Below, piece by piece: positions 24,840-36,633 of a DNA stretch of 64,000 nucleotides. Position numbers and translations under genes: made by a program. The DNA is from Escherichia coli (GTDB taxonomy: Bacteria > Pseudomonadota > Gammaproteobacteria > Enterobacterales > Enterobacteriaceae): assembly GCF_017348835.2 (NCBI RefSeq), contig NZ_CP071375.1. The stretch is one strand, 5' to 3'. The number at the start of each line of letters is the position of its first letter. Position 1 is the stretch's first letter. Under the pieces are notes generated by a model. That model did no database searches. It was given only the letters and a program-made list of their open reading frames with translations, and had not been told where the DNA came from.

Positions 24840-26666
24840 TTATTCCCGCGAACTAAACAACGCCGCCAGACCACTGCGCCGCTCAGTACGAGTGGCGATT
24901 GCCGCACTTAATATACGCTCATCGGCATACAGCGACAGACGGCGACGCGCGCGGGTCACCGCGGTGTATACCAGCTCTCGCGTTACTACCGGCGTGCGTT
25001 GGCTCGGTAAAATCAACGCCGCATGGTCGAACTCCGATCCCTGCGATTTATGTACCGTCATCGCCCACGTAGTTTCGTGCTCTGGCAAGCGACTCGGTTG
25101 CACAGACTTAATATTGCCGTCCGGCATCGCAAACCAGACGCGCGTCCCCTGCCCGCGATCCAGCGCAATACCGATATCGCCATTAAACAACCCAAGCGCG
25201 CTGTCATTACGGGCAATCATCACCGGTCGGCCTTCGTACCAACGAGAGTGCAGATGACGATGAATTTTGCGCTTCTGTTGCATAAACTGCTCAATTCGTT
25301 CATTCAGTCCAGCTACGCCAAACGGCCCTTCCCGCAGGGCGCACAAAAGCTGGTACTCATTGAACGCCTGAATGATTAAATCCGGCTCGGCACGCGCTTG
25401 CAGCAGATCCAGATAACGTCCGTAACCCGCAAGAGCTTCCTCAAGCATCGCAATATAATCTTCGCCGCTCTGTAAAAGTCGTTTTTCGATATCAGTAAAA
25501 TCCTGCTGAAAAACGGTTTTCACTGCCGTTTTATCACCACGGTTGATCGCCGCAGCTAACTGACCAATGCCAGAATCGTTGCCGAAACGATAGCTTTTTT
25601 GCAGCAGGCAGAGACTGTCGCGCAAAGATGCCGCTTCTGTGCCAGTTCCTGCCGGAACGTGAGTCCCCGTCAGGCGGCTTAGCTGCCTGGCACGCTCGGC
25701 GGTAAAGCCCGCGTTGGCATAAGCGCAGATATCGCCCAGCACAGCCCCAGCCTCAACCGAGGCCAGTTGATCACGATCGCCGAGAAAGATCACTCGCGCA
25801 TGATCTGGCAAGGCGTCGATCAGTCTCGACATCATAGGCAGATCGATCATTGACGCTTCATCTACCACCAGCACATCAAGATGCAGCGGGTTACCGGCAT
25901 GATGACGTAAACGCTGGCTACCCGGCTGCGCGCCCAGCAATCGGTGCAAAGTGCTGGCATCTTCCGGAATGCGTTTCTTTTGTTCATCGGTCAGCGGTAA
26001 CTGTCGCAAAGCCTTGCCGAGAGATTCGGTTAAGCGCGCGGCAGCTTTACCCGTTGGTGCAGCCAGACGGATACGGCAGCGTTCGCCGTCGGCCATTTGA
26101 ATTAACGCTGCCAGCAACTTCGCCACGGTGGTCGTTTTACCGGTGCCTGGGCCGCCGGAAATCACCGAGATCCGCCGCGTCAGCGCCACTGCCGCTGCAA
26201 CTTTTTGCCAGTTAATTTCATCGCTTACTGGAAAAAGTTTGTCCAGGGTTTGCGCCAGTAGAGCTTCATCAACCTCGATGGCATGATTCACCTCATTGAA
26301 GAAGCGCGCTACCGTCCGCTCGTTACACCACATGCGATTCAAATAAAGACGATCGCCACAGAGGATCATCGGCGTGGGTTCATCTCCCCTGCTGACCGCT
26401 TGAGAAGCCAACAAGCATTCTTCCCAATTTTGTAGCTCACCGATTTCACTGACACAGGTCGCCAACAGCGGATGCGACGCCTCGTTATTTTCCAGTCGTG
26501 AAAGCGGCAAACAAACGTGTCCCTCTCCGGCATCATGACTTAACAGTGCCGCCGCGAGGGTGACGGCAGGATGTTCATCTCCCGCCACGGTCAGGGCAAA
26601 TTGCACATCCAGCGGGCGTAGCTGTTTGTGCTCCACAGCTTCCAGTAATTGCTTTTGCAATTTCAT
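24840..26666 (-). CDS. recD: RecBCD enzyme subunit RecD (5'-3' helicase), 608 aa
   Basis: 608-aa ORF with Walker A (GGPGTGKTT); matches RecD; start overlaps the recB stop. Confidence 0.95.
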
Positions 26667-36200: not shown

Positions 36201-36633
36201 AGTCCGGACGATAGACCAGATACTGGTCAAACAGGTCCGCCGCTTTCGAGGAAAGCTGGAACAGCTTTCGCTTGTCGCTATCGTCAGTCAGATAATGCCG
36301 CAACAGGGTAAAGTCTTCGCGCTCCAGCAATTGCGGCAGCAGAGTCATCAGTTTCCAGCTCATGCTCTGTTTGTTAAAGGCGCTCTCTTTGGGGATCTCC
36401 GGTAACACCCGGACGAACATATCCCAGATAAAGCTCGCAGGCAGCGGAAAATCAATGTTTGCCGCAATACCAAACTTTTGCGACAGGGTCATTTGCAGCC
36501 ACTGTGCCATACCGGTACTTTGCACCAGAATCATCTCTGGTTCGAAAGGATCGTCCAGCCGTTCGCGTTCGACAATAAACTCCATCAACGCTTCCAGCAC
36601 GTCCAGACGATTGGAATGGTAGACCCTTAACAT
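33265..36633 (-). CDS. recC: RecBCD enzyme subunit RecC, 1122 aa
   Basis: 1122-aa ORF; sequence and length match RecC. Confidence 0.95.
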   Translation of the reverse strand: MLRVYHSNRLDVLEALMEFIVERERLDDPFEPEMILVQSTGMAQWLQMTLSQKFGIAANIDFPLPASFIWDMFVRVLPEIPKESAFNKQSMSWKLMTLLPQLLEREDFTLLRHYLTDDSDKRKLFQLSSKAADLFDQYLVYRPDWLAQWETGHLVEGLGEAQAWQAPLWKALVEYTHELGQPRWHRANLYQRFIETLESATTCPPGLPSRVFICGISALPPVYLQALQALGKHIEIHLLFTNPCRYYWGDIKDPAYLAKLLTRQRRHSFEDRELPLFRDSENAGQLFNSDGEQDVGNPLLASWGKLGRDYIYLLSDLESSQELDAFVDVTPDNLLHNIQSDILELENRAVAGVNIEEFSRSDNKRPLDPLDSSITFHVCHSPQREVEVLHDRLLAMLEEDPTLTPRDIIVMVADIDSYSPFIQAVFGSAPADRYLPYAISDRRARQSHPVLEAFISLLSLPDSRFVSEDVLALLDVPVLAARFDITEEGLRYLRQWVNESGIRWGIDDDNVRELELPATGQHTWRFGLTRMLLGYAMESAQGEWQSVLPYDESSGLIAELVGHLASLLMQLNIWRRGLAQERPLEEWLPVCRDMLNAFFLPDAETEAAMTLIEQQWQAIIAEGLGAQYGDAVPLSLLRDELAQRLDQERISQRFLAGPVNICTLMPMRSIPFKVVCLLGMNDGVYPRQLAPLGFDLMSQKPKRGDRSRRDDDRYLFLEALISAQQKLYISYIGRSIQDNSERFPSVLVQELIDYIGQSHYLPGDEALNCDESEARVKAHLTCLHTRMPFDPQNYQPGERQSYAREWLPAASQAGKAHSEFVQPLPFTLPETVPLETLQRFWAHPVRAFFQMRLQVNFRTEDSEIPDTEPFILEGLSRYQINQQLLNALVEQDDAERLFRRFRAAGDLPYGAFGEIFWETQCQEMQQLADRVIACRQPGQSMEIDLACNGVQITGWLPQVQPDGLLRWRPSLLSVAQGMQLWLEHLVYCASGGNGESRLFLRKDGEWRFPPLAAEQALQYLSQLIEGYREGMSAPLLVLPESGGAWLKTCYDAQNDAMLDDDSTLQKARTKFLQAYEGNMMVRGEGDDIWYQRLWRQLTPETMEAIVEQSQRFLLPLFRFNQS

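Follow-up and report, generated by a model that had tools for sequence, protein, structure and literature searches.

The window, a stretch of 64,000 nucleotides of Escherichia coli DNA analysed here as a whole, encodes the three subunits of RecBCD (exonuclease V) and the protease PtrA in four consecutive genes on the minus strand. In transcriptional order, these are recC (33265..36633), ptrA (30201..33089), recB (26666..30208) and recD (24840..26666). The sequence-only reading had placed all RecBCD subunits on the minus strand with ptrA between recC and recB, and the open reading frame list, the sequence, Pfam, PDB and RefSeq agree with this arrangement. The recC start lies only 12 nt past the stop of ppdC, and a spacer of 175 nt (33090-33264) separates recC from ptrA. 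As a whole, the locus is an ordinary, long-known E. coli cluster, and its overlaps have already been described.

Gene identities and relation to K-12

The identities of the four genes are confirmed by Pfam and RefSeq, with PDB matches for recB, recD and ptrA. RecC, the gamma subunit of 1122 amino acids, contains the Exonuc_V_gamma (PF04257, 8e-118) and RecC_C (PF17946, 2.4e-65) domains that identify it. RecB, the beta subunit of 1180 amino acids read from the ATG at 30208, has UvrD-helicase (1.1e-52), UvrD_C and PDDEXK_1 domains, and thus joins a UvrD-type SF1 helicase to a PD-(D/E)XK nuclease at its C-terminus, in which the motif GFIDLV...LLDYK is found. It aligns over residues 1-1180 with residues 1-1180 of PDB 1W36_B. 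RecD, the alpha subunit of 608 amino acids, combines a RecD_N domain (1.4e-29) with an SF1B helicase core (AAA_19, AAA_30 at 1.6e-29, and UvrD_C_2), carries the Walker A motif GGPGTGKT at residue 171, and matches PDB 1W36_D (608 amino acids) over its full length (residues 1-608).

PtrA (pitrilysin, or protease III) is a periplasmic M16 metalloprotease with a precursor of 962 amino acids. Four M16 domains are present (Peptidase_M16, PF00675; M16_C, PF05193; M16_M, PF16187; PqqF-like_C_4, PF22456), and the inverted zinc motif HxxEH, in the form HYLEH at residue 88, places the protein in family M16A, the pitrilysins. Its relatives in a structure-match search include insulin-degrading enzyme (1e-108). 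The N-terminus is hydrophobic (MPRSTWFKALLLLVALWAPLSQA), and PDB 1Q2L, "Protease III", spans residues 24-962, corresponding to the mature form that is left once a 23-residue signal peptide has been removed.

The earlier recognition of the known K-12 organisation is supported by RefSeq, which gives strain PE164 and K-12 MG1655 the geometry seen in the window (recD 2950635-2952461, recB 2952461-2956003, ptrA 2955996-2958884 and recC 2959060-2962428 in MG1655). The K-12 locus, recC / ptrA-recB-recD (b2822-b2819), shares with the window its genes, their order and strand, the protein lengths (1122/962/1180/608 amino acids), the 175-nt recC-ptrA spacer, and overlaps of 8 nt and 1 nt with base-identical junctions. 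Nevertheless, each of the four genes differs from its K-12 counterpart by 25-43 nucleotides and 2-4 amino acids (98.6-99.2% identity), and the upstream ppdA has a premature stop in the window. With only 3 mismatches over 64,000 bases to the pig isolate PE164, the window is from an E. coli other than K-12. Of 5426 complete E. coli genomes, all but one (5425) contain the cluster.

Overlapping stop and start codons

At the first junction, the recB start codon (ATG, 30208-30206) precedes the ptrA stop codon (TGA, 30203-30201), giving an overlap of 8 nt at 30201..30208 on the minus strand (ATGAGTGA), with the TGA ending 5 nt beyond the ATG. At the second, the recB stop codon (TAA, 26668-26666) and the recD start codon (ATG, 26666-26664) form the sequence TAATG (26664..26668, minus strand; TAATGA with the following base), with base 26666 common to both, an overlap of 1 nt. 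Both overlaps had been proposed in the sequence-only reading, and both were verified base for base. Within the species, 5215 of 5425 genomes (96%) have the same 60-mer around the ptrA/recB junction, and 4820 of 5424 (89%) the same 60-mer around the recB/recD junction.

Alternative start codons had been named as the observation that would remove these overlaps. The longest recB open reading frame begins at a GTG at 30217, and the annotated start is the ATG at 30208-30206, which yields the protein of 1180 amino acids. All 79 of the Enterobacteriaceae species aligned share this ATG, variability at third codon positions begins directly past it in the cross-species alignment, and sequences of the Enterobacter type have an in-frame TAA three codons 5' of it, so that no earlier recB start is possible there. 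For recB, the overlap therefore stands. The case for recD is weaker, as many species carry another ATG in frame at codon 3 (ATGACGATG), from which initiation would leave a 2-nt gap and no overlap; such a gap remains within coupling range.

The two start codons differ greatly in their potential to pair with the 3' tail of 16S rRNA. Against a background of 20-mers from the cluster (median -2.6 kcal/mol, with only 1.7% at -8 or below), the recB ATG has no Shine-Dalgarno sequence, its value of -2.5 kcal/mol being that of the background (family median -3.0). The recD Shine-Dalgarno sequence (GGAGGAGG, 26671..26678, minus strand), located within the last codons of recB, forms a duplex of -12.1 kcal/mol (family median -9.8). 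The corresponding values for ptrA and recC are -6.3 and -6.6 kcal/mol.

Overlaps of this kind are a common arrangement. The annotation of the window has 38 adjacent same-strand pairs of coding sequences; 9 of these overlap, and in four (yqeJ/yqeI, aas/lplT, ygdD/rlmM and ptrA/recB) the overlap is exactly 8 nt. The most common distance between E. coli genes is -4, with -1 and -8 in second and third place, and distances from -8 to +6 account for 24% of unidirectional pairs (Huber et al., 2023; PMC10666635). Because of these frequencies, the geometry of the stop and start codons is within chance expectation.

Conservation was examined in 80 Enterobacteriaceae species, with RecB 68-97% identical. 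The ptrA gene is directly upstream of recB in all 80, and the two genes overlap in 79 of them (-4 in 45, -8 in 31 and -20 in 3 species), while recB and recD overlap in 79 of 79 (-4 in 71 and -1 in 8). Start codons in the other species were called as those nearest to the E. coli position, which biases these counts toward overlaps; for recB, the invariance of the ATG and the in-frame stops that precede it mitigate the bias, while for recD many species have the codon-3 ATG. Since the geometry differs between genera (-4, -8 and -20 at one junction, -4 and -1 at the other), the overlap appears to be maintained rather than frozen. The only species in which ptrA and recB do not overlap, Intestinirhabdus alba, has a 413-nt insert and a better recB Shine-Dalgarno sequence (-5.8 kcal/mol). 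The spacer between recC and ptrA ranges from ~110 to 186 nt across species, one miscalled start aside. Overall, the cross-species data lend modest additional support to the idea that selection acts on the junctions.

Transcription and translation of ptrA-recB-recD

A putative promoter of ptrA-recB-recD is located in the recC-ptrA spacer (33222..33250, minus strand), where TTGCGC (33250-33245) and TATGAT (33227-33222) are separated by 17 nt. In the alignment, both hexamers are kept in Escherichia, Citrobacter and Salmonella within a variable intergenic region. A consensus scan of positions 24000-39500 gave 5 promoter-like sites against 11.3 expected by chance and 18 terminator-like sites against 17.2, which makes it uninformative, and missed this promoter because its -35 hexamer matches only 3 of 6 positions. 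Further downstream, a 36-nt segment of the ptrA 5' UTR (33104..33139, minus strand) is the counterpart of the Hfq-binding site described in K-12 (Kalita et al., eLife 2025; PMC12342828), and is followed by the ptrA Shine-Dalgarno sequence GAGG (33100-33097). Three substitutions distinguish the segment from the K-12 site; a strain-specific regulatory change was considered for these and rejected, as two of the bases are common to other Escherichia lineages and the region differs from genus to genus. At the opposite end, a REP-like inverted repeat (GCCGGATGCG ... CGCATCCGGC) followed by a T-run lies between the convergent recD and argA genes (24791..24831, minus strand), and the consensus scan gave a terminator-like match at 24803-24790. 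This repeat probably marks the end of the transcription unit, where it may act as the terminator. An Rfam scan of positions 23000-39000 gave no family match.

The way in which the ptrA-recB-recD mRNA is translated is a genuine question, and experiments that address it are under way (PMC12342828). In K-12, a polycistronic ptrA-recB-recD operon has been reported and translational coupling suggested, with deletion of the 36-nt Hfq site before ptrA, 2.9 kb upstream of recB, raising RecB protein per mRNA from 7.9 to 16.3 (Kalita et al., eLife 2025; PMC12342828). From that work, we infer that the three genes of the window are co-transcribed. The same deletion also halved recB mRNA, and for this reason does not amount to a clean test of coupling (PMC12342828).

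Among other E. coli genes, four of five overlapping pairs tested were found to be coupled; all were 4-nt overlaps, and the remaining pair, bioBF, was uncoupled despite a weak Shine-Dalgarno sequence (Huber et al., 2019; PMC6728339). Coupling requires that two genes overlap or lie very close together, and overlaps of this type are enriched in genes for the subunits of heteromeric complexes (Huber et al., 2023; PMC10666635). Like the coupled pairs, ptrA/recB and recB/recD lie on the same strand with the stop of one gene overlapping the start of the next, and their distances of -8 and -1 belong to the three most common E. coli classes. They differ from the tested pairs, at -4 (PMC6728339), in the length of the overlap. 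While recB and recD encode subunits of one heteromeric complex, the category in which overlaps are enriched (PMC10666635), ptrA and recB encode functionally unrelated proteins of different compartments.

It is highly probable that the window holds the canonical RecBCD locus, divided into two minus-strand expression units, with termination-reinitiation as the most likely mode of translation on a tricistronic ptrA-recB-recD mRNA. The recC gene would be expressed alone or with the tightly packed upstream genes ppdA-ppdB-ygdB-ppdC. The tricistronic mRNA would start from the promoter in the 175-nt recC-ptrA spacer and end at the REP-like hairpin past recD. Ribosomes that have finished ptrA would halt at the TGA 5 nt beyond the recB ATG, and those that have finished recB on the TAA whose last base is also the first of the recD ATG, making termination-reinitiation coupling the most likely mechanism at both junctions. 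Translational coupling of ptrA to recB and of recB to recD is plausible on the basis of these arrangements, and the case is strengthened because the overlaps are conserved across species and recB lacks a Shine-Dalgarno sequence. Since the recB start lacks such a sequence, RecB synthesis would probably depend on the translation of ptrA and amount to a small fraction of it. In this way, coupling could limit RecB to a few copies per cell, and the control that Hfq exerts at the ptrA ribosome-binding site may be passed on to recB. RecBCD must stay at a few copies per cell, and its over-expression is harmful. At the second junction, the overlap and the very strong Shine-Dalgarno sequence of recD would allow efficient initiation, with the output of RecB and RecD roughly matched. 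No structure masking the start codons was detected (fold z-scores of 0.18 and -0.38 at the two junctions and 0.30 in the ptrA 5' UTR), and coupling through structure unmasking is thus not supported.

A rival explanation, which we consider unlikely although it deserves to be weighed, is that the overlaps arose through genome compaction alone and have no regulatory role, recB and recD each being initiated de novo by free 30S subunits and the poor recB initiation site simply keeping RecB scarce. The frequency of overlaps, both in the window and among E. coli unidirectional pairs, is as this explanation would have it; the recD Shine-Dalgarno sequence is strong enough for independent initiation, and bioBF demonstrates that an overlapping pair can be uncoupled (PMC6728339). 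Compaction does not readily explain, however, why the overlaps persist at both junctions (79 of 80 species at one, 79 of 79 at the other) despite their shifting length, while the recC-ptrA spacer drifts, or how RecB is made when, in most species, its Shine-Dalgarno sequence is not above background. Moreover, the only lineage without the overlap is the one with a better recB Shine-Dalgarno sequence, and the Hfq site at the ptrA ribosome-binding site governs RecB output per mRNA (PMC12342828).

Less probable still is that recB and recD are transcribed mostly from an internal promoter in ptrA, which would make ptrA translation irrelevant and the ptrA/recB overlap mere packing. The consensus scan found no promoter-like site in the 3' half of ptrA, but it is too insensitive, having also missed the conserved ptrA promoter. 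Of greater weight are the polycistronic ptrA-recB-recD mRNA and the halving of recB mRNA upon deletion in the ptrA 5' UTR (PMC12342828), from which it follows that the ptrA promoter drives most recB transcripts.

Origin of ptrA in the recC-recB-recD array

Outside the 80 species, related loci without ptrA are found in Tatumella, Aeromonas caviae and Vibrio casei, which have the three subunit genes in the same order as the window. In Tatumella, the flanks are kept on both sides (ptsP-lgt-thyA-ppdA-ppdB-ygdB-recC ... recD-argA-amiC). Among these outgroups as a whole they are partly shared with the window, with argA, mltA or amiC downstream and, in Tatumella, ppd/thyA/lgt upstream. The overlap of recB and recD is 4 nt in Aeromonas, 1 nt in Vibrio and 8 nt in Tatumella, while recC and recB overlap by 1 nt in Aeromonas and are separated by gaps of 45 nt in Tatumella and 362 nt in Vibrio. 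In all three, recB has a Shine-Dalgarno sequence of its own (-9.3 kcal/mol in Aeromonas, -5.2 in Tatumella and, to a lesser degree, -4.1 in Vibrio). Because these syntenic loci lack ptrA, the gene appears to be a lineage-specific insertion, and the array that received it to have been recC-recB-recD ancestrally. Kalita et al. likewise describe two operons and a likely horizontal insertion of ptrA (PMC12342828). The mix of DNA repair and a periplasmic protease, pointed out as unusual from the sequence, is real, and such an insertion would account for it. A search for PtrA homologues gave at least 120 matches, and all among those listed are from Enterobacteriaceae (83% identity or more). The closest RecB representatives at 50% clustering come mostly from endosymbionts in which the locus is degraded (Steffania, Arsenophonus, Serratia symbiotica and Dasytiphilus), in which the recB/recD overlap is lost, with gaps of 17-192 nt, and which are uninformative on ptrA.

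That ptrA was placed with recB and recD through a functional link between PtrA and RecBCD (processing, regulation or a shared stress response) has nothing in its favour beyond the conserved position of ptrA next to recB in all 80 Enterobacteriaceae species, and was rejected as very improbable, given that PtrA is periplasmic while RecBCD acts on cytoplasmic DNA, and that Tatumella, Aeromonas and Vibrio retain recC-recB-recD without ptrA.

The coupling idea has been published before (Kalita et al., 2025); what is added here is the possibility of an evolutionary replacement, together with the cross-species Shine-Dalgarno pattern. The comparative data reveal no new kind of system. Tentatively, and with slightly less than even confidence, we suggest that ptrA has been co-opted as a long "leader" frame that sets the dosage of RecB, and hence of RecD, in place of an ancestral coupling of recC to recB. 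Because recB lacks a Shine-Dalgarno sequence and its ATG lies 5 nt ahead of the stop of ptrA, nearly all RecB would come from ribosomes that had only just completed PtrA, and Hfq control at the ptrA ribosome-binding site would be relayed 2.9 kb downstream. The insertion of ptrA would have put ptrA-to-recB coupling in the place of recC-to-recB coupling, and the 1-nt overlap of recC and recB in Aeromonas would be a remnant of that earlier state.

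Organization and identity of the cluster

The open reading frames and the RefSeq annotation agree with the sequence-only reading in placing all three RecBCD subunit genes on the minus strand with ptrA between recC and recB: recC at 33265-36633 (1122 aa), ptrA at 30201-33089 (962 aa), recB within a longest frame of 26666-30217 (annotated ATG at 30208-30206) and recD at 24840-26666 (608 aa). Pfam domains match these names, with Exonuc_V_gamma and RecC_C in RecC, four M16 protease domains in PtrA, UvrD helicase, UvrD_C and PD-(D/E)XK in RecB, and RecD_N, AAA_30 and UvrD_C_2 in RecD. 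RecB and RecD match, over their full lengths, chains B (1180 aa) and D (608 aa) of the E. coli RecBCD structure 1W36. PtrA carries the zinc motif HYLEH, and its alignment to protease III (1Q2L) begins at residue 24, the start of the mature periplasmic form after removal of a 23-residue signal peptide.

The cluster and its overlaps are real and textbook knowledge, as was correctly described and interpreted before; the overlaps were reportedly recognised already with the 1986 sequencing of these genes. What is added here is a cross-species survey, a Shine-Dalgarno contrast and a set of syntenic outgroups, which modestly strengthen the readings of translational coupling, a hypothesis already in the recent literature (PMC12342828), and of ptrA insertion.

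The source strain of the window is not K-12, from which the four genes differ by 2-4 amino-acid changes each (98.6-99.2% identical), while only 3 bases over the whole 64 kb differ from the pig isolate PE164. The arrangement had been called the known K-12 organisation, and the same relative coordinates indeed recur in the RefSeq annotation of both PE164 and K-12 MG1655. Of 5426 complete E. coli genomes, 5425 carry the 13.5-kb cluster stretch and one has no match. Searches with the cluster or its junctions also hit one record typed as a plasmid and up to 3 separate places in some E. coli genomes, and the RecB match in E. coli E69 ends at residue 666.

Geometry and conservation of the two junctions

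Read on the minus strand, the recB/recD junction is GGAGGAGGCGTAATGAAA, where the recB stop TAA (26668-26666) and the recD ATG (26666-26664) have one base, 26666, in common, confirming the proposed stop-start overlap. The ptrA/recB junction is CTGATGAGTGAAAAGAATGAGTGATGTC, with the ptrA stop TGA at 30203-30201, and the sequence bears out the 8-bp overlap with the annotated recB ATG (30208-30206). K-12 and the window are base-identical at both junctions and the reference annotation has the same geometry, so that the earlier description holds in all details. Such geometry is not unusual. Among the 38 same-strand adjacent CDS pairs annotated in the same 64 kb, 9 overlap: by 8 nt in yqeJ/yqeI, aas/lplT, ygdD/rlmM and ptrA/recB, by 1 nt in recB/recD and csdE/csdA, and by 10, 4 and 16 nt in ppdA/ppdB, ppdB/ygdB and ygdB/ppdC. 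Across E. coli, an overlap of 4 nt is the most frequent intergenic distance, followed by overlaps of 1 and 8 nt, and distances from -8 to +6 cover 24% of 2,987 unidirectional pairs (PMC10666635).

Within E. coli, 60-mers centred on the ptrA/recB and recB/recD junctions are identical in 5215 of 5425 and 4820 of 5424 genomes, respectively. A wider survey with RecB as query and one genome per species gave 80 loci, all from Enterobacteriaceae (RecB identity 68-97%), in which the four genes were placed by tblastn and the junction distances then measured. Directly upstream of recB lies ptrA in 80/80 loci, and wherever the flank suffices recC precedes ptrA and recD follows recB. The recC-ptrA spacer varies from about 110 to 186 nt; a 15-nt value at one locus (L029) probably reflects a ptrA start placed at the wrong codon. 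The ptrA/recB overlap is kept in 79 of 80 species, as 4 nt (ATGA; n=45), 8 nt (n=31) or 20 nt (n=3), and the recB/recD overlap in 79 of 79, as 4 nt (n=71) or 1 nt (n=8). In most genera the two junctions are both ATGA, and the 8-nt/1-nt combination is the Escherichia type, also seen in a few Citrobacter. Because the overlap persists while its form changes, this comparison of sequences points to selection that keeps the genes close, not to a frozen sequence.

Alternative start codons had been named as what could remove the overlaps. At recB the overlap survives, as an in-frame GTG at 30217 would extend it to 17 nt rather than abolish it, and the annotated start is well supported by an ATG invariant in 79/79 aligned species, by third-position variability beginning directly after it, and by an in-frame TAA three codons upstream in Enterobacter-type sequences. 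The recD start is less certain outside Escherichia, since many species have a second ATG at codon 3, whose use would leave a 2-nt gap and no overlap.

In reduced genomes of endosymbiont type (L084, L085, L086 and L090, including Candidatus Steffania adelgidicola), gaps of 17, 42, 192 and 109 nt replace the recB/recD overlap, with recC located elsewhere or absent from the vicinity; in Arsenophonus, gene calling gave no recD behind recB. Relaxed selection at this junction may account for these differences.

Ribosome-binding strength and proposed translational coupling

Ribosome-binding strength was estimated from the pairing between the 3' tail of 16S rRNA and the 20 nt that precede each start codon. 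The values in the window (Enterobacteriaceae medians in brackets) are -12.1 kcal/mol for recD (-9.8), -6.6 for recC (-6.6), -6.3 for ptrA (-6.4) and -2.5 for recB (-3.0). As background 20-mers in the cluster have a median of -2.6 kcal/mol, the 20 nt upstream of recB do not exceed background as a Shine-Dalgarno. The recB start would seldom be used by free ribosomal subunits, and the obvious source of initiation would be ribosomes that terminate at the ptrA stop, 5 nt further downstream. The only species of the 80 without the ptrA/recB overlap, Intestinirhabdus alba, has a 413-nt GC-rich non-coding insert at this junction (9588-10000 of its locus; no long ORF), an altered PtrA C-terminus and, before recB, a Shine-Dalgarno-like AGAGGA with a better value (-5.8 kcal/mol). 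The recB Shine-Dalgarno is also better in Tatumella (-5.2 kcal/mol) and Aeromonas (-9.3), and slightly so in Vibrio (-4.1). With a single such species inside the family, this contrast is suggestive only.

Initiation of recB by ribosomes arriving from ptrA also fits the published effect of deleting a 36-nt Hfq-binding site. This site lies 2.9 kb from recB, immediately before the ribosome-binding site of ptrA, and its deletion doubles RecB protein per mRNA; the deletion also halves the mRNA and is therefore not a clean test of coupling (PMC12342828). Four of five tested overlapping E. coli pairs are coupled (PMC6728339), although overlap alone is no proof, as bioBF is a tested overlapping pair without coupling. 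Coupling collapses at a distance of about 20 nt, and genes for subunits of heteromeric complexes, as RecB and RecD are, show an enrichment of overlaps (PMC10666635). RNA folding found no unusual structure at either junction (z = 0.18 and -0.38), which disfavours unmasking of a start by hairpin opening; coupling, if it exists, would proceed by termination-reinitiation.

Position of ptrA and the flanks of the cluster

In three outgroups, recC is followed directly by recB and recD without ptrA. In Tatumella sp. (Erwiniaceae; GCA_018257615.1, 4581-13434; RecB 59% identical), the flanks match those of E. coli (ptsP-lgt-thyA-ppdA-ppdB-ygdB-recC and recD-argA-amiC), recC ends at 7955, 45 nt before recB at 8001, and the recB/recD overlap is 8 nt long. 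Aeromonas caviae has overlaps of 1 nt (recC/recB) and 4 nt (recB/recD), and Vibrio casei a 362-nt gap after recC and a 1-nt recB/recD overlap, followed by argA and mltA. These gene orders agree with PMC12342828, which states with reference to Cromie 2009 that the usual order is recC-recB-recD and that ptrA interrupted it; Tatumella could either retain the ancestral arrangement or have lost ptrA secondarily. A direct functional link between PtrA and RecBCD is very unlikely, since PtrA is exported and RecBCD cytoplasmic.

Two operons have been described, recC and a polycistronic ptrA-recB-recD (Kalita et al., eLife 2025; PMC12342828). A putative ptrA promoter on the minus strand consists of TTGCGC (33250-33245) and TATGAT (33227-33222) separated by 17 nt; in an alignment, both hexamers are conserved in Escherichia, Citrobacter and Salmonella, while the rest of the recC-ptrA spacer is variable. 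The stretch that corresponds to the 36-nt Hfq site (33139-33104) begins 83 nt beyond the -10 hexamer and carries 3 substitutions relative to K-12 (G>C, A>C, T>A); at two of these, other Escherichia lineages have the same base as the window. Outside Escherichia this site is poorly conserved, in contrast to the ptrA Shine-Dalgarno and both hexamers of the putative promoter. The 61-nt spacer in which recD and argA converge is largely taken up by a REP-like palindrome (GCCGGATGCG...CGCATCCGGC). This inverted repeat and the T-run that follows it (24831-24791) probably mark where the transcription unit ends.

At the other end, only 12 nt separate the ppdC stop from the recC start. Because nearly all E. 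coli gene pairs with a spacing of 9-12 nt are transcribed together (194 of 201 characterised cases; PMC10666635), recC may also be read through from ppdA-ppdB-ygdB-ppdC. This packing of recC against unrelated prepilin-like genes (36634-38382) is a second functional mix, absent from the sequence-only reading; the ppd-ygdB-recC order also occurs in Tatumella. The prepilin-type ppdA (37912-38382, minus strand) has a premature stop at codon 45 (about 38250-38248); it is a RefSeq pseudogene ('internal stop') in PE164 and intact in K-12.

The window holds 8 Chi sites (GCTGGTGG), where shuffled sequence would give 2.2, and every one lies on the minus strand (25865, 30025, 32876, 36114, 37971, 47399, 47741 and 50420). 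Their strand bias is the known leading-strand skew, and the presence of one site in each of recD, recB, ptrA and recC, hence in every gene of the enzyme that reads Chi, looks like coincidence.
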